Shown here one piece after another: positions 3,312 through 22,338 of a stretch of DNA of 64,000 nucleotides. Source of the DNA: a virus. Taxonomy: Duplodnaviria; Caudoviricetes. Numbering within the stretch: position 1 is the first letter of the stretch; every line of letters begins with the position of its first letter. Position numbers and translations under genes: made by a program. The notes beneath the pieces were generated by a model. That model saw only the letters and a program-made list of their open reading frames with translations, made no database searches and was not told the origin of the DNA. The stretch covers positions 825 to 64,824 of the IMG/VR virus record IMGVR_UViG_3300005541_000010; one strand, given 5' to 3'.

Positions 3312-3932
3312 ATGAGAGGCGTTAAAACCAACATCCTTCCGGGAACAAAATTTGGGTTACTGACAGTAATCGGTGGTCCGATATTTCTCGATCATCGAGC
3401 GCATTACGAATGCAAGTGTGATTGTGGGGGCCGCAAACAACCTCGAAGTGACGCCCTCCTAGATGGCAGCGCGCAGTCTTGCGGGTGTTCGCGTGTAGAC
3501 CACGGAGCATGGCGTGGCGGACACCGAACGCCGGAATACACAGCGTGGTCCTCTATGGTGTCTCGCTGCACTAATCCAGCAAACAAACGCTACGCTCAAT
3601 ACGGTGGCCGTGGCATACAAGTTTGCGCTAGATGGCGCCTGTTCCGAAATTTCCTAATTGATCTTGGGGAGCGTCCGAGCAACAAACATTCCCTCGATCG
3701 GATCGACAATGATCGTGGCTATGAGATTGGGAATTGCAGATGGGCGACGCCGCAAGAACAGCAAGGGAACAAGCGCACCACCACTAAAGTGACCATTTGC
3801 GGGGTTACCTTGCATGTAGCCGCGTGGGCCAGAAGAATCGGTATATCGGACGCTGGTTTTTGCTACCGCCTGAAATCCCGCTGGCCTGAAGAAGCGCTGC
3901 TCAGACCTTCCAACAGGGGGAACCGGCCATGA
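3312..3932 (+). CDS. HNH-type homing endonuclease-like protein
   Basis: CKCDCG...SCGC, EYTAWSSMVSRC, YGGRGIQVC, LDRIDNDRGYEIGNCRWAT motifs; more AT-rich than neighbours. Confidence 0.8.
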   Translation: MRGVKTNILPGTKFGLLTVIGGPIFLDHRAHYECKCDCGGRKQPRSDALLDGSAQSCGCSRVDHGAWRGGHRTPEYTAWSSMVSRCTNPANKRYAQYGGRGIQVCARWRLFRNFLIDLGERPSNKHSLDRIDNDRGYEIGNCRWATPQEQQGNKRTTTKVTICGVTLHVAAWARRIGISDAGFCYRLKSRWPEEALLRPSNRGNRP

Positions 3933-4699: not shown

Positions 4700-4770
4700 G
4701 CAGGTGCCGCCGTGGGGCGTAACGGCCTTCCAAGCCGGCATTGCGAGTTCGACTCTCGTCGCCTGCTCCA
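4700..4770 (+). tRNA. tRNA-Gly(TCC), compact D arm
   Basis: GCAGGTG/CGCCTGC, loop CTTCCAA, TTCGA T loop, U73-CCA. Confidence 0.85.
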
Positions 4771-4794
4771 ATTTCTTTCTGTAATCTGTGCGCT

Positions 4795-5139
4795 ATGGTT
4801 ACTAAGGCTGGCGGCAGCCAACATAAGGTTAACGGAGAGACGCATTACTGTCGTAATCAAACACGGTATGTTCTATACGTTCGAAATAGAATCAAGCGTC
4901 TTGAGGCGCTGATAAGGGAATTCAAAAATCGACCGTGTTTCGACTGCGGCAATCCGTTTCCGTTTTACGTCATGCAGCTAGATCATGCCCGTGGCGTGAA
5001 ATTGTGTAATCCATCACGACTGGCTAGGTTAGGCTGGTCTATAGCAAGAATTCAGGCAGAGTTAGAAAAGTGCGATGCGGTGTGTGCGAATTGTCACGCC
5101 ATTCGCACTTACAAGCGCAGACAGAATATTCCGGTCTAG
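4795..5139 (+). CDS. HNH endonuclease inside the tRNA array
   Basis: CFDCG...LDH...CDAVCANCHAIRT; last codons and stop overlap tRNA-Asn. Confidence 0.85.
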   Translation: MVTKAGGSQHKVNGETHYCRNQTRYVLYVRNRIKRLEALIREFKNRPCFDCGNPFPFYVMQLDHARGVKLCNPSRLARLGWSIARIQAELEKCDAVCANCHAIRTYKRRQNIPV

Positions 5140-5207
5140 CACTCATGGCGAGCGCGCTCCGCTGTTAACGGAGAATGAGAGTGGTTCGATCCCACTGGCC
5201 GGAGCCA
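5130..5207 (+). tRNA. tRNA-Asn(GTT)
   Basis: TCCGGTC/GGCCGGA, CTCCG-CTGTTAA-CGGAG, G73-CCA. Confidence 0.9.
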
Positions 5208-5213
5208 AATCCA

Positions 5214-5286
5214 GGTTCCACACCGGGAGGTGGAGTAGCACTGTCGATGCTGCGAGCGCGGGGTTCGAGTCCCCGTGGAACCGCCA
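5214..5286 (+). tRNA. tRNA-Asp(GTC), no acceptor-D connector
   Basis: GGTTCCA/TGGAACC, loop CTGTCGA, G73-CCA. Confidence 0.85.
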
Positions 5287-5292
5287 TTCAAT

Positions 5293-5369
5293 CCCCGCTT
5301 AGCTCAGACGTTAAGAGCGCCGCTCCTACAAAGCGGAAGTCGCAGGCAATCAATCTGCAGTGGGGACCA
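5293..5369 (+). tRNA. tRNA-Val(TAC)-like, C33 and degenerate T loop
   Basis: CCCCGCT/AGTGGGG, CCGCT-CCTACAA-AGCGG, T loop CAATCAA, A73-CCA. Confidence 0.65.
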
Positions 5370-5370
5370 T

Positions 5371-5457
5371 CTAGTGTTAGCCAGCTATGGAGGCTGAGCA
5401 GACTGTAAACCTGCTGTCCTTGCGGCCCGTTGGGTTCGATTCCCAAGCACTGGACCA
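5371..5457 (+). tRNA. tRNA-Tyr(GTA)
   Basis: Loop CTGTAAA, long variable arm, TTCGA, A73-CCA. Confidence 0.88.
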
Positions 5458-5461
5458 ATTT

Positions 5462-5536
5462 ACCCCCATAACTTATGCAGTAGAGCCTCGCCTCTTAAGC
5501 GATGGGAACCAGGTGCAAATCCTGGTGGGGGTACCA
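5462..5536 (+). tRNA. tRNA-Lys(CTT)
   Basis: ACCCCCA/TGGGGGT, loop CTCTTAA, CCA. Confidence 0.9.
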
Positions 5537-5613
5537 CACCGTGAAGTTGCCGGCATACGCGGCCAGCGAATGCGAGCCGGACGAGTCGTTGGCGTAACCA
5601 ACCTAACATTTCG

Positions 5614-5685
5614 GGGCGGCGTACTGGGGTACAGGGATGCTTTGCAAGCAACCCGCGTGGAGTTCGATCCTCCGGCTGTCCACCA
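5614..5685 (+). tRNA. tRNA-Ala(TGC), no acceptor-D connector
   Basis: GGGCGGC/GCTGTCC with G3:U70, loop TTTGCAA, A73-CCA. Confidence 0.85.
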
Positions 5686-5689
5686 ACAC

Positions 5690-5766
5690 GATCGTGAATG
5701 CAAAGCGGCGGAGCAGCACGGCTCTCAACCGTGGCCTATCGGGTTCAACTCCCGACACGATCACCA
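5690..5766 (+). tRNA. tRNA-Glu(CTC)
   Basis: GATCGTG/CACGATC, CACGG-CTCTCAA-CCGTG, CCA. Confidence 0.88.
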
Positions 5767-5847
5767 GTTCCCGCGCGATAGGCCGGCAGGCTGCTATGCG
5801 CGCCCCGCTGCCGCGGAAGGCATGAATTAACATGCGGGATAAAATGC

Positions 5848-5923
5848 GATGCCGGTGTAGCCGGACGAACGCCGCGCCTTTCAAGCGTTGGTACTACGGG
5901 TTCGAGTCCCGTCGGCATCTCCA
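5848..5923 (+). tRNA. tRNA-Glu(TTC)
   Basis: GATGCCG/CGGCATC, loop CTTTCAA, TTCGA, CCA. Confidence 0.85.
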
Positions 5924-5924
5924 T

Positions 5925-6010
5925 CCCCTCGTGGTGGAATTTAGCAGACACAGTTGGCTCAGAACCAACCGTCGCGAGGCGTGCGGGTGCAAGTCCTGCC
6001 GAGGGGACCA
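5925..6010 (+). tRNA. tRNA-Leu(CAG)
   Basis: CCCCTCG/CGAGGGG, GTTGG-CTCAGAA-CCAAC, long variable arm. Confidence 0.92.
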
Positions 6011-6016
6011 ATTTTT

Positions 6017-6091
6017 GTGGGCGAAGGCGAAGTAGATAGCCCGCGCGCCGTGACCGCGCTGTAGGTGCTGCAAATGCACCCGCTCACCCCA
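6017..6091 (+). tRNA. tRNA-His(GTG), C33, no encoded G-1
   Basis: GTGGGCG/CGCTCAC, loop CCGTGAC, C73-CCA. Confidence 0.8.
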
Positions 6092-6095
6092 ACAT

Positions 6096-6169
6096 CACGA
6101 CGTGGCCGAGAGGCGAGGCGGACGGTTGCAACCCGTTCCACGCTGGTTCAACTCCAGTCGTCGTGTCCA
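6096..6169 (+). tRNA. tRNA-Cys(GCA)
   Basis: CACGACG/CGTCGTG, loop TTGCAAC, U73-CCA. Confidence 0.9.
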
Positions 6170-6174
6170 AATAT

Positions 6175-6249
6175 CTGAGTGTGGGATAGCGGCTGTCCAC
6201 CTGCCTTGGGAGCAGGTCCAGGCACGTTCGACTCGTGTCACTCAGACCA
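6175..6249 (+). tRNA. tRNA-Pro(TGG)
   Basis: CTGAGTG/CACTCAG, CCTGC-CTTGGGA-GCAGG. Confidence 0.9.
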
Positions 6250-6253
6250 CTTT

Positions 6254-6331
6254 CGGGATGTAAGTCAGCCTGGTTAGACACCCCGGCCCGGAACCGGGAA
6301 GCCGCAGGTTCAAATCCTGCCGTCCCGACCA
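6254..6331 (+). tRNA. tRNA-Pro(CGG), C33
   Basis: CGGGATG/CGTCCCG, CCCGG-CCCGGAA-CCGGG. Confidence 0.88.
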
Positions 6332-6337
6332 AACAAT

Positions 6338-6411
6338 GCCTCCATCGTCCAATGGCAGCACGGCTGCCTGATTAGCGGCTAATCTACGTTCAAGTCGTAG
6401 TGGAGGTACCA
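6338..6411 (+). tRNA. tRNA-Ile(GAT), U37
   Basis: GCCTCCA/TGGAGGT, GCTGC-CTGATTA-GCGGC, A73-CCA. Confidence 0.78.
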
Positions 6412-6415
6412 ACAC

Positions 6416-6488
6416 GCGGGCGTACTCAGGGCAGTACGCTACCTTGCCAAGGTAGATGGCTGGGATTCGAGTTCCCTCGCCCGCTCCA
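6416..6488 (+). tRNA. tRNA-Gly(GCC), no acceptor-D connector
   Basis: GCGGGCG/CGCCCGC, CTACC-TTGCCAA-GGTAG, U73-CCA. Confidence 0.88.
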
Positions 6489-6492
6489 ATGC

Positions 6493-6563
6493 GCCTTCGC
6501 CGATCGGACGGTAGCGGTCTTCTAAGCCGCCGACTGCAGGTTCGACTCCTGCCGAGGGCGTCA
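6493..6563 (+). tRNA. tRNA-Arg(TCT), compact, ends TCA instead of CCA
   Basis: GCCTTCG/CGAGGGC, loop CTTCTAA, GCAGG-TTCGACT-CCTGC. Confidence 0.82.
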
Positions 6564-6565
6564 CT

Positions 6566-6638
6566 ACCCACGCCGATAGGAACGGCGGTCGCCTCCTAAG
6601 CGGCCATCTTGTCGGTTCGAGTCCGACCGTGGGTGCCA
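6566..6638 (+). tRNA. tRNA-Arg(CCT), compact
   Basis: ACCCACG/CGTGGGT, loop CTCCTAA, G73-CCA. Confidence 0.86.
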
Positions 6639-6642
6639 TTTC

Positions 6643-6721
6643 GCTCCGGTAGCACAACTTGGCAGATGCGCGCCTCTCAAAAGGGTTGATGTTGTGGGTT
6701 CGAATCCCACCCGGAGTACCA
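6643..6721 (+). tRNA. tRNA-Leu(CAA) without long variable arm
   Basis: GCTCCGG/CCGGAGT, loop CTCAAAA, weak anticodon stem, 6-nt variable region. Confidence 0.75.
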
Positions 6722-6722
6722 T

Positions 6723-6808
6723 ACGCCTGTGGTGAAACTGGTAGACGCGCGTGGACTGAGAATCCCGTGCCTTCGGGCGTGTCGGTTCAAATCCGGCCAG
6801 GCGTACCA
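6723..6808 (+). tRNA. tRNA-Leu(GAG)
   Basis: ACGCCTG/CAGGCGT, loop CTGAGAA, variable arm GCC-TTCG-GGC. Confidence 0.9.
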
Positions 6809-6812
6809 ATTC

Positions 6813-6888
6813 GTGGGGAGAGCTAGTGTGGTCATAGCTCCGGTCTGAAAAGCCGGCTAACTTGGTTCGATCCCAAGTCCTCACACCA
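6813..6888 (+). tRNA. tRNA-Phe(GAA)
   Basis: GTGGGGA/TCCTCAC, CCGGT-CTGAAAA-GCCGG. Confidence 0.9.
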
Positions 6889-6893
6889 TTTGC

Positions 6894-6968
6894 AGCGGGT
6901 TAGTTCAGTAGCAGAACAGGGGTCTCATAAGCCTCACGTCACAGGTGCAATTCCTGTACCCGCTACCA
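6894..6968 (+). tRNA. tRNA with CAT anticodon (Met or Ile2)
   Basis: AGCGGGT/ACCCGCT, loop CTCATAA; paired 1:72, so not a typical initiator. Confidence 0.88.
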
Positions 6969-6974
6969 TTTTCC

Positions 6975-7069
6975 TGTAGTCAGCTCCGGCGAGCGGCGCG
7001 GCCTTATAAGCTGCGGAGACCTGGCGGACCGCTGGGAACGGCTGGGCTCGACACCCAGGACTACAATCA
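6975..7069 (+). tRNA. tRNA with TAT anticodon (Ile) and long variable arm
   Basis: TGTAGTC/GACTACA, GCGGC-CTTATAA-GCTGC, about 27-nt extra arm, CTGGG-CTCGACA-CCCAG, ends ATCA. Confidence 0.72.
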
Positions 7070-7073
7070 ACAT

Positions 7074-7149
7074 GGCCATGGCCCGAGGGACTTCGGGCAC
7101 GACGCTACGAACGTCGCTGGCGTAGGTTCGACTCCTACCATGGTCGCCA
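7074..7149 (+). tRNA. tRNA-Arg(ACG)
   Basis: GGCCATG/CATGGTC, 6-bp D stem directly after the acceptor, CGACG-CTACGAA-CGTCG. Confidence 0.88.
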
Positions 7150-7154
7150 ATTCT

Positions 7155-7227
7155 CTCCTCGCCGACGGACTCGGCATGAGCCCTCCGAAGGCTCGTTGCG
7201 TTGGTTCGAATCCAACCGTGGAGGCCA
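7155..7227 (+). tRNA. tRNA-Arg(CCG), compact
   Basis: CTCCTCG/CGTGGAG, GAGCC-CTCCGAA-GGCTC, G73-CCA. Confidence 0.85.
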
Positions 7228-7228
7228 C

Positions 7229-7304
7229 GCCGTTGTAGCACGTCAGGACGTGCAGCTCCTTGGTAAGGAGACGGGAGCTGGTTCGACCCCAGCCTACGGC
7301 ACCA
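7229..7304 (+). tRNA. tRNA-Thr(GGT)
   Basis: GCCGTTG/CTACGGC, loop TTGGTAA, CCA. Confidence 0.88.
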
Positions 7305-7309
7305 TTTTC

Positions 7310-7386
7310 GCCTACCAAGCATAGACAGCGATGTGCGCGGCCTGTATCCGCGCGATGCCGGGTGCAAGTCCACGGGGTAGGCTCCA
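7310..7386 (+). tRNA. tRNA-Thr(TGT), C33
   Basis: GCCTACC/GGTAGGC, GCGCGG-CCTGTAT-CCGCGC, bulged T stem. Confidence 0.8.
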
Positions 7387-7390
7387 ATTT

Positions 7391-7466
7391 GCCCTTCAAG
7401 CTCTGACAGCGGAGCGCCGGATTCGTACCCCGGAGGCGGCTGGTGCAATTCCAGCGTGGGGCTCCA
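7391..7466 (+). tRNA. tRNA-Thr(CGT)
   Basis: GCCCTTC/GTGGGGC, loop TTCGTAC, U73-CCA. Confidence 0.85.
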
Positions 7467-7473
7467 CTTTCTC

Positions 7474-7550
7474 CCCTCCATAACTCAACCTGGCTAGAGC
7501 TCCGCCTTTTAAGCGGTAGGGTCGAGGTTCGATGCCTCGTGGAGGGACCA
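7474..7550 (+). tRNA. tRNA-Lys(TTT)
   Basis: CCCTCCA/TGGAGGG, loop CTTTTAA. Confidence 0.92.
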
Positions 7551-7554
7551 TCTT

Positions 7555-7643
7555 GGAGAGTTAACCGAGCGGGCGCTCGGGCTGGTTTGCTAAACCAAGG
7601 GCATCCTCACGGGTGTGTGAATCGTGCTCACAGCTCTCCGCCA
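7555..7643 (+). tRNA. tRNA-Ser(GCT), 8/4 fold
   Basis: GGAGAGTT/AGCTCTCC, GTGA/TCAC T stem, loop TTGCTAA, G73-CCA. Confidence 0.85.
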
Positions 7644-7648
7644 AACCT

Positions 7649-7738
7649 GGACGATGAAGCGCGCAGGCGCGCGCCGCCGGCTTGAACCCGGCTGGTACCG
7701 GCAGCGGTATGTGGATCGAGACCGACCGTCGTCCGCCA
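7649..7738 (+). tRNA. tRNA-Ser(TGA), 8/4 fold
   Basis: GGACGATG/CGTCGTCC, 6-bp D stem, GCCGG-CTTGAAC-CCGGC, long variable arm. Confidence 0.85.
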
Positions 7739-7745
7739 ATTCAAT

Positions 7746-7835
7746 GGAAGGTGAAGCAGACAAGCGCGCTGCGCCTGCCTCGAAAACAGGTCGTGTCCTC
7801 ACGGGCATGTGACGCAAGTTCACCGCCTTCCGCCA
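7746..7835 (+). tRNA. tRNA-Ser(CGA), 8/4 fold
   Basis: GGAAGGTG/CGCCTTCC, loop CTCGAAA, GTGA-CGCAAGT-TCAC. Confidence 0.85.
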
Positions 7836-7840
7836 TCTTT

Positions 7841-7931
7841 GGACGATAAACCGGACAGGCGCGCCGGGAGCGGTTGGAAGCCGTATCGTGTCACGACGTG
7901 GCATCTGCATCGTCTGCAGTGTCGTCCGCCA
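7841..7931 (+). tRNA. tRNA-Ser(GGA), 8/4 fold
   Basis: GGACGATA/TGTCGTCC, loop TTGGAAG, CTGC-ATCGTCT-GCAG. Confidence 0.82.
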
Positions 7932-7936
7932 ATTTC

Positions 7937-8006
7937 GGCCGGTGCTCCGGGAGCAAGGTGAACTCCAAATCCACCGAGCAAGTTTCGACTACTTGACTGG
8001 CCGCCA
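7937..8006 (+). tRNA. tRNA-Trp(CCA), 70-nt compact fold
   Basis: GGCCGGT/ACTGGCC, GCTC-CGG-GAGC, 6-bp anticodon stem, loop CTCCAAA, 3-nt variable loop, G73-CCA. Confidence 0.82.
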
Positions 8007-8007
8007 T

Positions 8008-8083
8008 TCAGGTGTGGGTTGCCGGAATCCCCTCGTGGCTCTGAACCACGACCACGCACGTTCGACTCGTGCCGCCTGATCCA
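8008..8083 (+). tRNA. tRNA-Gln(CTG)
   Basis: TCAGGTG/CGCCTGA, CGTGG-CTCTGAA-CCACG. Confidence 0.88.
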
Positions 8084-8088
8084 CTTTC

Positions 8089-8164
8089 ACACGAGCGGGT
8101 TGCTGGTATCCCAACTGCGCTTTGAACGCAGTTCACGCTGGTTCGATCCCAGCCTCGTGTTCCA
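8089..8164 (+). tRNA. tRNA-Gln(TTG)
   Basis: ACACGAG/CTCGTGT, AACTGCG-CTTTGAA-CGCAGTT. Confidence 0.86.
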
Positions 8165-9251: not shown

Positions 9252-9427
9252 GGTGTCCTGAGAGCCGCCAAGACTTCTTCTTTCACGACCTCTCTCACGA
9301 TGCGCCGGATCGTCTCGGCGGTGACGTGGCTATCGCACCAGTGGGCTTTGCGCTGCTCCGGTGGCAGTTCTCGAAACTCCTCATCGCTCGGAACCGGCTT
9401 GCCGCAATTCGGGCAATCGTAGCTCAT
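9242..9427 (-). CDS. Small CxxC protein
   Basis: MSYDCPNCGKP; coupled overlaps with neighbours. Confidence 0.5.
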   Translation of the reverse strand: MSYDCPNCGKPVPSDEEFRELPPEQRKAHWCDSHVTAETIRRIVREVVKEEVLAALRTPWT

Positions 9428-9909
9428 GCGACATGCTTCCAAGTTTTGCGATTCAGGATGGCATGGATGGCTTGCCGCGAGACGCCGTACCGATCTGCGA
9501 GAACCGGAGGCGATGATTCTGATGCACGGATAACAGGGATGTCGGTTGCCTCGAGCCGCGCGTGTCGGTTCCTCTCTCCAATCGGCGGATTAGATCGGCC
9601 GCGCGCCGCCTTGTCGCGCATGTTGTCAGTGTGCGTGCCGGCATAAAGATGGTTTGGATTAACGCAGCGTGGATTGTCACAGGTATGGCAAAGGCTCATG
9701 CCTGCGGGGATCGGTCCTCGGGTCAATTCCCATGCCCACCGGTGAGCCAATTGCGTTCCGCTGCGAGCGGCTCCGAATAGACCGTAGCCGAACTTGTTAA
9801 CGGCTCCCCGCCAGAACCAGCAAAAGTCTGTGCGCCGAACGGCGGCCCAAAACAATCGACTCCTGCGCTCCGGTATGGTGAACACTGTCTTAATTCCCGT
9901 AATGCTCAT
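9424..9909 (-). CDS. HNH endonuclease with C-terminal HTH
   Basis: CWFWRG...GYG...AHRWAWE...CHTCDNPRCVNPNHL..GT..DN. Confidence 0.9.
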   Translation of the reverse strand: MSITGIKTVFTIPERRSRLFWAAVRRTDFCWFWRGAVNKFGYGLFGAARSGTQLAHRWAWELTRGPIPAGMSLCHTCDNPRCVNPNHLYAGTHTDNMRDKAARGRSNPPIGERNRHARLEATDIPVIRASESSPPVLADRYGVSRQAIHAILNRKTWKHVA

Positions 9910-10327
9910 CGGCGTATTTTGCAACCTCGGCCTCCAATTCGCCCAAGTCCATGTCGTGGAGCAGGTGCGCACACACCGTCATCATCGAGGAAATGACGCG
10001 CCCAAAGGCCACGTCGTCAGGGATGGAGTCGTAGGAAAGCGAGCCCGCTTCTTCGCGGATGACTCCATCAAGATCCGGGTAGCTCGTGGTGTAGCCCGAA
10101 GCAAACGCGATGGCCTTGCGAAAGGTGGTGAAGTCCGTATAGCGCTCCTGGTTGTCGTAGGTGAGCTGCAGGAGTGCCATTGCCAGCTTGTGATGCTGGT
10201 AGCTGCGCGGCTTCACGACGTCGGCACGATATACCTCGCCGAGCTTGTACTTGCGGGCGATCTCGGCACTCGGCTCGTCGGCCGGCTCAAAGCCGCCGAG
10301 GGTCTTCTTCAGATACAGGCGAGCCAT
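9890..10327 (-). CDS. DUF1367-family protein
   Basis: LYLKKTLGGFEPAD...KLGEVYRADVVKPRSYQHH...SLSYDS pattern. Confidence 0.75.
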   Translation of the reverse strand: MARLYLKKTLGGFEPADEPSAEIARKYKLGEVYRADVVKPRSYQHHKLAMALLQLTYDNQERYTDFTTFRKAIAFASGYTTSYPDLDGVIREEAGSLSYDSIPDDVAFGRVISSMMTVCAHLLHDMDLGELEAEVAKYADEHYGN

Positions 10328-21346: not shown

Positions 21347-21850
21347 ATGTCAACCAATGATGTACCCGGCGCACGCGCCGGCAACCGGGACGAGCTGGCG
21401 ATGGGGTGCTGGGCGGAGCACGACGACGGCTCTTTGATTCTCGTCGAGTCCACAGAGGGAGGCCGAGTTGTCTACTCGATCTTCGATATGGACATGGACC
21501 CAATCACGGAGTACAGGGATTCGATGGCGGAGGGCGCGTTCAAGAGAGCGTTTTCTTGGGTGCCGGCCGACAAGAAGTCAGAAAAATGGACTTGGCACGA
21601 TAAAAGTCCGTTCGATTTTGACCGCGTTATCAAGCGTGGTGCGCGAGACGGTACGCGCCATGCTTCCGCAGACGACCTACTGAACGCGGCGCAGCGTGTC
21701 CGGCGATCACGCGAGATTCATCGCGGGCAGGACGTTGACCTGCGGGCAATGGCTACGCGGATCGACCAAGTCGGGGAAAAAGCCGAGGGGATCATCAAGA
21801 GATTGCAGCGCGCCATTAGCAAGCTGCCACAGGGCAGGGCGAAACGATGA
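21347..21850 (+). CDS. Hypothetical protein (GCWAEH...WTWHDK)
   Basis: Long ORF with SD, coupled to the next gene. Confidence 0.65.
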   Translation: MSTNDVPGARAGNRDELAMGCWAEHDDGSLILVESTEGGRVVYSIFDMDMDPITEYRDSMAEGAFKRAFSWVPADKKSEKWTWHDKSPFDFDRVIKRGARDGTRHASADDLLNAAQRVRRSREIHRGQDVDLRAMATRIDQVGEKAEGIIKRLQRAISKLPQGRAKR

Positions 21851-22338
21851 TTCGCAAGGCAATCCCTGGGCATCCCGGCTATGAAGCAGACTCAGCAGGG
21901 AATATCTGGTCGGTGGCCAGTAATTGGCGCGGTTACGGAAAGCGAATCCTGACAGCCAAGATTTGGCGTGACGAGTACGTCGTCGTCACCGTGGGTCGTA
22001 GCCTGTATACCGTACATGGATTGGTGTGTCGCGCATTCCACGGACCGAAGCCGCGCGGCAAACAGGTTCGGCATCTTGATGGCGTGCGTGCCAATAATCG
22101 GCCCGAGAACCTTCAGTGGGGGACAGCGAAGGAGAATGCCGATGATCGTCGGCGCCACGGCCGCACCCGCTACGGTACACGCCTTCCGTGGGCCAAACTT
22201 GATCCCGCAGCAGTGCGGGGTATTCGCCACTGGTTGGGACAGGGACGCGAACAGCAGGACGTTGCCGATCTATATGGGATTCATCCGAGCACTGTCAGCC
22301 AGATTAAGAGGCAAGTTACGTGGCGGGAGGTCCCATGA
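21847..22338 (+). CDS. NUMOD4-HNH homing endonuclease
   Basis: IPGHPGYEADSAGNIWS, VHGLVCRAF, RHLDGVRANN..ENL.WGT..EN. Confidence 0.9.
   Translation: MIRKAIPGHPGYEADSAGNIWSVASNWRGYGKRILTAKIWRDEYVVVTVGRSLYTVHGLVCRAFHGPKPRGKQVRHLDGVRANNRPENLQWGTAKENADDRRRHGRTRYGTRLPWAKLDPAAVRGIRHWLGQGREQQDVADLYGIHPSTVSQIKRQVTWREVP

Follow-up and report, generated by a model that had tools for sequence, protein, structure and literature searches.

About nine of the roughly 36 tRNA genes in the window (the whole 64,000-nucleotide stretch of phage DNA analyzed here) have a shortened fold, one without the U8/N9 linker (0–1 nt stands in its place), with a tiny D hairpin and mostly with a 6-bp anticodon stem. Judging from sequence comparison, we think it quite probable that these compact genes are real elongator tRNAs working in translation and that they form a distinct compact-core structural class. 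We define that class as a 7-bp acceptor, a linker of 0 (or 1) nt, a D stem of 3–5 bp closing a 3–7 nt loop with GG, 1–3 nt, an anticodon stem of 5–7 bp (mostly 6) with a 7-nt loop, a variable loop of 3–5 nt, a 5-7-5 T arm and the 7-nt return strand of the acceptor, for a length of 66–72 nt (mostly 67–70) before CCA.

The array and its compact genes

The array covers all 20 amino acids, encodes CCA on nearly all of its genes and leaves spacers of only 1–8 nt between many of them. The array and the genes at issue are these:

4700–8164, + strand: tRNA gene array, about 36 genes, split by an HNH endonuclease ORF at 4741–5139
4700–4770, + strand: compact tRNA-Gly(UCC); 7-bp acceptor, 1-nt linker (C), D hairpin CGCC GUGG GGCG, UAA, 4-bp anticodon stem plus mismatches, U73 CCA
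5214–5286, + strand: compact tRNA-Asp(GUC); acceptor GGTTCCA, 0-nt linker, D hairpin CACC GGGA GGTG, GA, 6-bp anticodon stem, variable loop 5, T arm 5-7-5, G73 CCA
5614–5685, + strand: compact tRNA-Ala(UGC); acceptor GGGCGGC (G3:U70), 0-nt linker, D hairpin GTAC TGGG GTAC, AG, 6-bp anticodon stem (A.A mismatch), variable loop CGCG, T arm, A73 CCA
6416–6488, + strand: compact tRNA-Gly(GCC); 7-bp acceptor, 0-nt linker, D hairpin TACT CAGGGC AGTA, CG, 5-bp anticodon stem, variable loop 5, T stem with 4/5 pairs, U73 CCA
6493–6560, + strand: compact tRNA-Arg(UCU); 7-bp acceptor, 0-nt linker, D hairpin CCG AUCGGA CGG, UA, 5-bp anticodon stem, variable loop 5, G73
6566–6638, + strand: compact tRNA-Arg(CCU); 7-bp acceptor, 0-nt linker, D hairpin CCG AUAGGAA CGG, C, 6-bp anticodon stem, variable loop 5, G73 CCA
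6975–7066, + strand: tRNA with a UAU anticodon, Ile?(TAT); 1-nt linker, D hairpin GCTC CGGC GAGC, 6-bp anticodon stem
7074–7149, + strand: tRNA-Arg(ACG), borderline; normal length, nt 8/9 can pair to give a 6-bp D stem abutting the acceptor
7155–7227, + strand: compact tRNA-Arg(CCG); acceptor CTCCTCG/CGTGGAG, 0-nt linker, D hairpin CCGA CGGAC TCGG, CA, 6-bp anticodon stem, variable loop 4, G73 CCA
7937–8006, + strand: compact tRNA-Trp(CCA); acceptor GGCCGGT, 0-nt linker, D hairpin GCTC CGG GAGC, AA, 6-bp anticodon stem (A.C mismatch), variable loop 3, G73 CCA, 67 nt before CCA
8008–8164, + strand: tRNA-Gln(CUG) and tRNA-Gln(UUG), borderline; normal length, 6–7 bp anticodon stem, 1-nt linker only when N9 is counted into the D stem

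In seven of these (Asp, Ala, Trp, Gly(GCC), Arg(UCU), Arg(CCU) and Arg(CCG)) ARAGORN, MFE folding and a custom parser agree with the first-pass annotation that the D stem starts directly after the 7-bp acceptor; it has 3–4 bp and a 3–7 nt loop with GG, and after it come 1–2 nt, an anticodon stem of 5–7 bp (mostly 6), a variable loop of 3–5 nt and a normal T arm, for 67–70 nt before CCA. The same three methods place the D hairpin of Arg(ACG) (GCCCGA GGGACT TCGGGC) against its acceptor, and its nt 8/9 can pair, in line with the annotation's claim that this gene, too, lacks a connector. This gene and the two Gln tRNAs, all with the anticodon at position 34, are nevertheless borderline because they are of normal length and also admit a drawing in which the D stem is shorter and the linker has 2 nt. 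The 1-nt connector that had been read in four genes stands for Gly(UCC) and Ile?(TAT), which join the seven in the class on that footing, and is optional in the Gln pair. The compact genes thus carry the anticodons GUC, UGC, CCA, GCC, UCC, UCU, CCU, CCG and, with the borderline case, ACG.

Nearly all compact tRNAs have 7/7 acceptor and 5/5 T-stem pairs, and CCA is encoded in every window member except Arg(UCU), where TCA comes next and the acceptor helix can be extended to 9 bp, and Ile?(TAT), which has a long variable arm and the T loop CTCGACA and resembles the allo-tRNA(UAU) of Mukai et al. (2017). For Arg(CCG) (64.7 bits with model R1) the compact fold requires an acceptor register from 7155, with 6/7 pairs; the ARAGORN start at 7153 gives 5/7. 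The Trp(CCA) build is found again at L051:7831. A few details of these genes speak against working tRNAs: the A.A mismatch of Ala, the A.C mismatch of Trp, the short anticodon stem of Gly(UCC) and the missing CCA of Arg(UCU).

Recurrence and identity elements

We assembled 70 unique compact tRNAs from IMG/VR contigs, cultured alphaproteobacterial phages and alphaproteobacterial chromosomal tRNA arrays. The first-pass annotation had proposed a coherent phage tRNA architecture, and its coherence is upheld: the fold is shared by dozens of further phages and of tRNA arrays in bacteria, among them the cultured phages RcXuper, RpAliso, DSS3_MAL1, DSS3P8, MD18, XM05 and CcrMagneto. What falls is its confinement to phages, as the build also occurs in tRNA arrays on large alphaproteobacterial contigs or chromosomes. 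The distance from the acceptor to the anticodon stem is bimodal, 13–14 nt in one group and 16–23 nt (main peak 18–20) in the other, and the compact tRNAs are therefore a discrete class.

Across the 70, the D loop contains GG in 69, and U33 and R37 are each present in all 70; the identity elements track the anticodon, family by family. Compact Ala tRNAs have G3:U70 (29/29) and A73 (28/29), Arg tRNAs have GGA, which includes A20 (20/21, vs. 5/49 in other families), Gln tRNAs have a weak 1:72 pair and G73 (4/4), and Met tRNAs have A73 (10/10). The window genes themselves, as first noted, retain G3:U70 in Ala (with A73), U73 in Gly and G73 in Asp.

Might these RNAs have the shape of tRNAs but act outside translation, as regulators or as decoys of nucleases or toxins directed at tRNAs, and keep their marks only so far as mimicry demands? 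There is something to be said for it. In Roseobacter phages, compact copies stand alongside canonical Ala(UGC) and Arg(ACG) genes with the same anticodons, which counts against working tRNAs in that the compact copies may be redundant there or serve another purpose; one chromosomal array has an RtcB ligase and a Ro/TROVE gene embedded in it, genes that link the arrays to tRNA damage; and some irregular array tRNAs are charged and yet unused in translation (Mukai et al. 2017, PMC5389517). We nevertheless hold this improbable. This phage, whose set serves all 20 amino acids, has no Asp, Ala, Trp, Gly or Arg genes other than the compact ones, so that together with the rest they would make up a complete, self-sufficient tRNA supply, and a decoy has no need of the synthetase marks that lie away from the anticodon loop (G3:U70, A20, N73 and the weak 1:72 of Gln) and that each family keeps here.

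Pairing, register and standard models

The same fold can be asked whether its helices behave, over evolution, as helices. A gap-free alignment of 15 compact tRNA-Ala from 15 contigs has 96.7% of its cells paired and a covariation score of 0.696 (vs. 0.175 for shuffles, of which 0/500 reach it, and 0.05–0.13 for slid partners), figures to be read with the fact that three of its four D-stem pairs were preset by our own search pattern. The sixth anticodon-stem pair is AU in 8, GC in 5, CG in 1 and UA in 1 of the 15; the D pair 9:18 is CG in 9 and UA in 6; and RNAalifold independently predicts the same cloverleaf. A second test used 14 compact tRNAs that no search pattern had selected and a single fixed geometry: 47 of 56 positions paired (84%), vs. 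30–58% with slid partners and 29.7 ± 3.1 with permuted 3′ strands, of which 0/5000 reached 47. Shuffle tests run on one D region at a time are each weak (p 0.006–0.75), with a combined value of 1.6e-4. Compensatory changes are found across all four helices of the compact set.

These results speak strongly against the thought that we are looking at decaying pseudogenes, in which D-region deletions are tolerated while host tRNAs do the work. The array does have degenerate tRNA-sized remnants (5537–5613 and 5767–5847) and many irregular features (C33, T loops other than TPsiC, and stem mismatches), and five of the compact genes (Asp, Ala, Trp, Arg(CCU) and Arg(CCG)) are rejected by the Rfam tRNA model RF00005, with no match even at E ≤ 10; over the Asp gene there are instead weak mascRNA (28.2 bits) and tRNA-Sec matches. 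Arg(UCU), Gly(GCC), Gly(UCC) and Arg(ACG) pass its gathering score of 29 bits, at 39.7, 35.1, 30.6 and 35.2 bits. Decay, however, would hardly hold 70 unique tRNAs, from phages and bacteria far apart, to one precise geometry, nor would it keep the D-loop GG, U33, R37, G3:U70, A20 and CCA, and we consider it very unlikely.

The annotation had also pointed to homologues as the place where a canonical register with weaker D stems might surface; across the set, canonical pairing (10–13 with 22–25) averages about 1.7 of 4 pairs, no better than chance. A mis-registered fold, whether with U8/N9 and a weak canonical D stem or with the 8/4 acceptor/T split of the array's four Ser tRNAs (7555–7931), is thus hardly credible, even though ARAGORN draws several compact tRNAs with 1–3 linker nt and 1–3 bp D stems, one relative (L021 Arg-CCG) has 4/4 canonical pairs and both Asp and Arg(ACG) can be drawn as 8/4: the slid registers fall short, nt 8 in 52 compact tRNAs is C in 28, G in 16, U in only 4 and A in 4 (C or G in 44 of the 52), and an 8/4 drawing is impossible in the other six of the eight window genes because their nt 8 has no pairing to the last T-stem base. 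The compact fold is either the MFE structure or the drawing with most pairs for the window's genes. For the compact genes, 7/5 is the best-scoring split, and they do not have the 8/4 or 9/3 split of allo-tRNAs. Nor do they have the canonical combination of U8/N9 linker, 7–11 nt D loop and 5-bp anticodon stem; they do have the canonical 7/5 helices, 7-nt anticodon loop with U33/R37, G18G19, N73 and CCA.

Compact genes in RcXuper, RpAliso, DSS3P8, vB_RpoS-V10 and MD18 are unannotated, and one in RcXuper is labelled tRNA-Ser. Standard models thus miss or misname these genes, and phage tRNA inventories are therefore undercounted.

Known relatives and what the compact core may do

A literature search found no published description of the compact-core class. 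The precedents named at the outset, tRNA-Pyl and mitochondrial tRNA-Ser(UCN), are apt, and the closest of them is the deltaN class of tRNA-Pyl (Methanomethylophilus alvus type), in which U8 is absent altogether; on our best reading, the compact genes are working tRNAs with a core like that one. Like the compact tRNAs, deltaN tRNA-Pyl has 0 nt between acceptor and D stem, a shortened D loop, a 6-bp anticodon stem, a 3-nt variable loop and a compact core; the compact genes have a 0–1 nt linker, small D loop and 6-bp anticodon stem to match, with a variable loop of 3–5 rather than strictly 3 nt. It differs in its Pyl features (CUA anticodon, PylRS charging and an anticodon-stem bulge), and no compact gene has the CUA anticodon. 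tRNA-Pyl is not known to carry G18G19 or the T-Psi-C marks; the compact tRNAs have the D-loop GG, mostly TTCGA T loops, sense anticodons and the matching identity elements of eight ordinary amino acids, and their hosts are phages and Proteobacteria. In E. coli, deltaN tRNA-Pyl, with its short D loop, its 6-bp anticodon stem and no U8, is active and works with bacterial EF-Tu and ribosomes (PMC11467909, PMC7609411); a review notes that, when that class was first described, no other tRNA was known to combine loss of U8 with a short D loop (PMC11467909).

Mammalian mitochondrial tRNA-Ser(UCN) and bacterial and Methanosarcina tRNA-Pyl also have a shortened linker (1 nt), a small D loop, a 6-bp anticodon stem and a short variable loop (PMC7609411). 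They and the compact tRNAs have in common that a longer anticodon stem accompanies a shortened core, and in all of them it would offset the lost core layers. They differ in keeping one linker nucleotide and in being organellar or Pyl-specific, single specialized tRNAs rather than a class across many amino acids. Closer in genomic setting are the (8/4) tRNA-Ser, (8/4) tRNA-His and allo-tRNAs of alphaproteobacterial phage clusters (Mukai et al., NAR 2017, PMC5389517), irregular tRNAs from phage tRNA gene clusters; the allo-tRNAs likewise have an extended anticodon stem and a long D stem capped by a tetraloop, but have an 8/4 or 9/3 split and a long variable arm where the compact tRNAs have 7/5 and a 3–5 nt variable loop, and loss of the 8–9 linker in class I tRNAs is absent from that paper's main text. 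Horizontally transferred L-arrays, with up to about 43 dense tRNA genes and homing endonucleases, are known in bacteria and phages, and RtcB has been discussed, together with their tRNAs, in connection with how cells recover from translational stress (Santamaria-Gomez et al., NAR 2021, PMC8421152). The topic there is array expression and role, unlike the structural question here, and a term search of that paper finds no mention of the D arm, D loop or a compact D-arm fold.

How, then, would such an RNA work? As elongator tRNAs, the compact RNAs would have a standard 12-bp acceptor/T-arm helix (7/5), T loop and anticodon loop. With U8 and N9 missing, a D helix of 3–5 bp would abut the acceptor stem, its loop down to 3–7 nt and yet keeping a GG that may dock on the T loop; 1–2 (mostly purine) nucleotides and a 6–7 bp anticodon stem, with a variable loop of 3–5 nt, could make up for the lost core layers, and the outcome would be an L of the usual size around a small core, like the solved structure of tRNA-Pyl. 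Host aminoacyl-tRNA synthetases would presumably charge it by recognizing elements of the acceptor and the anticodon and, for Arg, A20 as well. That would explain why the compact form is confined to Ala, Arg, Asp, Gln, Gly, Met, Pro and Trp, families in which identity would be independent of the core. The compact core might be favoured for resisting tRNA-directed nucleases, for doing without core modifications such as s4U8, or for folding robustly; evasion of s4U8-dependent or shape-dependent host nucleases, the purpose proposed in the first-pass annotation, is a conjecture. We would go further only as a conjecture, and a doubtful one: that this is a horizontally mobile class selected as a poor substrate for the tRNA nucleases or toxins of hosts or competitors, or for independence of host modification enzymes. 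A core with no U8, no 8–14 or 15–48 layers and few modification sites could let phage translation continue while canonical tRNAs are destroyed, a structural counter-defence that would complement the known anticodon-loop escape mutations.

Across many phages and alphaproteobacterial arrays, tRNAs for at least eight ordinary amino acids have the compact build, and several of these systems are culturable. Should the compact tRNAs prove to be aminoacylated and to decode, a second core design would be routinely accepted by bacterial synthetases, EF-Tu, RNase P and ribosomes, the genes would offer natural scaffolds for orthogonal-tRNA engineering, and it would become directly testable whether phages remodel their tRNAs to evade defences that target them.

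Compact tRNAs in the phage array

The tRNA gene array of this phage (4700-8164, + strand) is dense, with ~36 genes that together represent all 20 amino acids, CCA encoded in nearly all of them, and spacing that is often just 1-8 nt; for a 65-kb phage this is an unusually large number of tRNA genes. ARAGORN at its default found 26 (including one spurious minus-strand call) and more at a lower threshold, Rfam contributed Val(TAC), and His(GTG), Thr(TGT) and Ser(CGA) were recognized by eye and by minimum free energy (MFE) folding. Seven to nine of the ~36 genes, an unusually high share, are of a kind that we call compact: the D stem begins directly after the 7-bp acceptor, with the U8/N9 linker gone or, in Gly(TCC) and the UAU tRNA, reduced to 1 nt.

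The first-pass annotation had drawn this fold from the sequence. Our own parser, which holds the acceptor, T arm and anticodon loop fixed and then seeks the best D hairpin, arrives at the same drawings for Asp, Ala, Trp, Gly(GCC), Arg(TCT), Arg(CCT) and Arg(CCG), each with a perfectly paired helix of 3-4 bp starting at nucleotide 8. In these seven, the D loop is 3-7 nt and always contains GG, and 1-2 nt then lead into an anticodon stem that is mostly 6 bp (range 5-7), followed by a variable loop of 3-5 nt; without CCA the molecules measure 67-70 nt, and their anticodon begins at position 29-31 rather than the usual 34-36. MFE folding gives the compact cloverleaf for Asp, Ala, Arg(CCT), Arg(CCG), Arg(ACG) and Trp, and the Arg(CCG) acceptor is better in a register from 7155 than in ARAGORN's from 7153. 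The single linker nucleotide drawn for Gly(TCC) and the UAU tRNA is likewise found by the parser. The zero linker of Arg(ACG) and the 1-nt linker of the two Gln tRNAs can be drawn, but these tRNAs are of normal length, and their linker is short only because nucleotides 8 and/or 9 can lengthen the D stem; we have therefore treated them as borderline members.

Could these genes be ordinary tRNAs, misdrawn? An 8-bp acceptor over a 4-bp T stem (8/4) is feasible for Asp and Arg(ACG) only. The canonical register, with weaker D stems (10-13 with 22-25, N26 and a 5-bp anticodon stem), yields a mean of ~1.7 of 4 pairs across the set, which is the level of chance, and hence is not supported. The Rfam tRNA model has no match to Asp, Ala, Trp, Arg(CCT) or Arg(CCG) even at E<=10, and Asp draws a weak mascRNA match instead. 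No orthologue of this Asp tRNA was found, so its fold rests on class-level evidence; a structural pattern built for it gave one match, an unrelated and poorly paired tRNA-like sequence, which we rejected.

The compact fold is real

That the compact fold is real is shown by four lines of evidence, which establish the secondary structure and also that it is conserved. In a gap-free alignment of 15 compact Ala tRNAs (A3), 96.7% of cells pair on the compact structure. Covariation scores 0.696 there; shuffles give 0.175 (0 of 500 reach the observed value) and slid partners 0.05-0.13. Double changes occur in each of the six anticodon-stem pairs, the extra outer one (AU in 8, GC in 5, CG in 1 and UA in 1) included. 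RNAalifold, given no structural input, returns the identical cloverleaf plus a possible seventh pair.

Three of the four D pairs in A3 were set by our own search pattern, and we therefore made an unbiased test on 14 compact tRNAs (Met, Gln, Trp, Pro, Asp and Arg) found only as neighbours. With a single fixed geometry—nucleotides 8-11 against the four that stop 2 nt short of a 6-bp anticodon stem—pairs form at 47 of 56 positions, compared with 30-58% in slid registers and 29.7+-3.1 pairs when the 3' strands are permuted (0 of 5000 permutations reach 47). The D helices of this set are highly diverse (CAGC/GCUG, CCUC/GAGG, ACUC/GAGU, CCGC/GCGG, CACC/GGUG, GCUC/GAGC and others), and three more (GCGC/GCGC, CCAU/AUGG and CCGU/ACGG) come from compact Ala genes that were picked up independently of the search pattern. 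An alignment of various compact tRNAs made with MAFFT (A1) was of poor structural quality and served only as the seed for a covariance model, R1, which is not class-specific, as canonical tRNAs also score 27-38 bits.

How might such a molecule hold its shape? We suggest that the helix of 7-bp acceptor and 5-bp T stem would be retained, as would the elbow that the D-loop GG makes with the T loop, with the D helix stacked under the elbow right beside the acceptor. The lost layers (8-14, 15-48 and 26-44) may be replaced by the 1-2 linker purines together with a sixth or seventh pair in the anticodon stem, which would preserve the distance from anticodon to CCA. The same logic has been proposed for mitochondrial tRNA-Ser(UCN) and is seen in structures of tRNA-Pyl.

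Signs of function and distribution

Of 70 unique compact members, every one has U33 and a purine at 37, and 69 have the D-loop GG and with it the partners of T-loop positions 55 and 56. The identity elements to which the first-pass annotation had pointed are there in this set: G3:U70 in 29/29 compact Ala (with A73 in 28/29), U73 in Gly and G73 in Asp, as well as G73 in Trp, A73 in Pro and A73 in 10/10 Met. In compact Gln (4/4), the 1:72 pair is weak or missing and position 73 is G. The D loop of compact Arg reads GGA, which places A20, in 20/21 members, against 5/49 in other families; A20 is the main D-loop determinant for ArgRS. The families with compact members are ones in which the synthetase recognizes chiefly the acceptor and anticodon; where recognition relies on core or long-arm features, as in Ser, Leu, Tyr, Cys, Phe and Glu, the tRNAs have canonical or other forms. 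In the phage's full set, moreover, Asp, Ala, Trp, Gly and Arg are represented by compact genes alone. DeltaN tRNA-Pyl, with the same core features as the compact tRNAs here, is active in E. coli (PMC11467909; PMC7609411), and such a fold is therefore usable by bacterial EF-Tu and ribosomes. All of this is consistent with the compact genes being working tRNAs, as we infer them to be.

The phage itself (a record of 64,824 bp, rated complete by CheckV and nearly all within the window) has no close relative in the collections searched. Its terminase relatives in IMG/VR share only 43% identity and lie on fragments of 26-41 kb, 46-69% complete and without tRNAs; its PagL-like neighbour gene has no relatives in IMG/VR; and in a blastn search with the complete array, 50,697 phage records yielded matches to single canonical tRNAs only. 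The host is probably an alphaproteobacterium.

The compact architecture is nonetheless common in phages and bacterial arrays. Among cultured phages of Alphaproteobacteria, RcXuper (a Rhodobacter phage), RpAliso, DSS3P8, DSS3_MAL1 (Ruegeria) and MD18 (Phaeobacter) carry compact Arg(ACG) and Arg(CCG), built as acceptor, CCAG CGGAA CTGG, TG, 6-7 bp and a variable loop of 4, with CCGG/CCGG as a compensated variant of the CCAG/CTGG D stem; the same five phages have compact Ala(UGC) beside canonical copies with the same anticodon. Erythrobacter phage XM05 (acceptor, then CCG ACUGGAA CGG) has the D arm type of the window's Arg tRNAs, and Caulobacter phage CcrMagneto has a compact Ala (GGGGUAU, GCGC AGG GCGC, AG, 6 bp). 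Most of these GenBank records leave the compact genes without annotation, among them the Arg tRNAs of RcXuper, RpAliso, DSS3P8, vB_RpoS-V10 and MD18, and the RcXuper compact tRNA-Ala(UGC), G3:U70 included, is labelled tRNA-Ser(cga); these annotation problems lie at L014:3203-3274 and L014:5010-5082, with equivalents in L015-L017.

Pattern scans of IMG/VR found compact Ala in 14 contigs and compact Arg in 14, with further compact Met, Gln, Pro and Arg tRNAs in their arrays. In the genome collection the Ala pattern matched 20 places, of which 18 are real and all lie within arrays (7-30 tRNA genes each, counted in <=8 kb around the match); the other two lie in Bacillota MAGs (L067 and L070), where the pattern fits by chance and there is no tRNA. 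The 18 come from Xanthobacteraceae, Bradyrhizobium, Hyphomicrobiales, other alphaproteobacterial MAGs and one betaproteobacterium, on contigs of <=1.26 Mb, and the bacterial arrays also hold compact Met and one compact Trp of the window type. One 6.2-Mb genome has strong R1 matches only in its array. The distance from acceptor to anticodon stem in these arrays is bimodal (13-14 nt versus 16-23 nt, with the main peak at 18-20), and the compact form is therefore a discrete class rather than the tail of a continuum.

Irregular neighbours, precedents and setting

Other members of the array are irregular in other ways:

6975-7066 (+): UAU-anticodon tRNA; long variable arm, 4-bp D stem with tetraloop, 6-bp anticodon stem, T loop CTCGACA, no CCA
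5293-5366 (+): Val, C33 for the near-universal U33, anticodon loop CCTACAA
6017-6090 (+): His, C33, anticodon loop CCGTGAC
6254-6328 (+): Pro CGG, C33, anticodon loop CCCGGAA
~7310-7383 (+): Thr UGU, C33, anticodon loop CCTGTAT
5293-5369 (+): Val, T loop CAATCAA
5462-5536, 5925-6010, 6017-6093, 6894-6968, 7391-7466 (+): Lys CUU, Leu CAG, His, Met, Thr CGU; G55 T loops (TGCAAAT, TGCAAGT or TGCAATT)

The five tRNAs with G55 are otherwise canonical. C33 also occurs in Val, Pro and Tyr genes of a chromosomal array (L079), and compact tRNAs of related arrays often have the T loops AGCGTTA, GGCGGTA or ATCGTCA, some with A54/T58 for T54/A58. Two tRNA-sized gaps (5537-5613 and 5767-5847) hold degenerate tRNA-like sequence lacking a proper acceptor or T arm, probably decayed genes. 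Long UAU tRNAs (90-93 nt) stand in the related arrays L024, L028, L052, L059 and L079, the last alone checked in detail; that of the window resembles the allo-tRNA(UAU) whose use in translation Mukai et al. doubted (PMC5389517).

The same authors described in 2017 (8/4) tRNA-Ser and tRNA-His in tRNA clusters of alphaproteobacterial phages (PMC5389517), and the window's Ser tRNAs (GCU, UGA, CGA and GGA; 7555-7931) match the former: all four allow an 8-bp acceptor helix over a ~4 bp T stem, most clearly in Ser-UGA and Ser-GGA, and in Ser-GCU and Ser-UGA a D stem of 6 bp closes a loop of 4 nt. The main text of that paper makes no mention of compact 7/5 class I tRNAs. We found no description of the compact class in the literature, a search that covered subscription journals thinly and so is no proof of absence.

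What, then, surrounds such arrays? The phage has four HNH endonuclease ORFs, three of which flank or interrupt its tRNA array, an arrangement that fits the spread of tRNA arrays by homing endonucleases:

3312-3932, 4741-5139 (+): HNH endonuclease ORFs
9424-9972 (-): HNH endonuclease ORF
21847-22338 (+): HNH endonuclease ORF

Its remaining genes are mostly unannotatable; those that could be assigned comprise a lysis cassette, recombination genes resembling ERF and RecE, a terminase and a virion protein. When ~40 ORFs of the window were scanned against Pfam and PHROG, no enzyme that processes, modifies or cleaves tRNA came up. Elsewhere, a chromosomal array on a 773-kb alphaproteobacterial MAG contig (L053:684-4295) embeds genes for the RNA ligase RtcB and a TROVE (Ro60-like) protein, neighbours that link such tRNA arrays to RNA repair; this array has a gene of the compact-Ala type whose 3' half parsed uncleanly. 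The roseobacter-phage arrays encode peptidyl-tRNA hydrolase, a ribonuclease and a CCA-adding enzyme. Evasion of nucleases, which the first-pass annotation had proposed, is not thereby shown, but RtcB, Ro/TROVE, peptidyl-tRNA hydrolase, the ribonuclease and the CCA-adding enzyme, taken as neighbours, fit a setting in which tRNAs are damaged and replaced.
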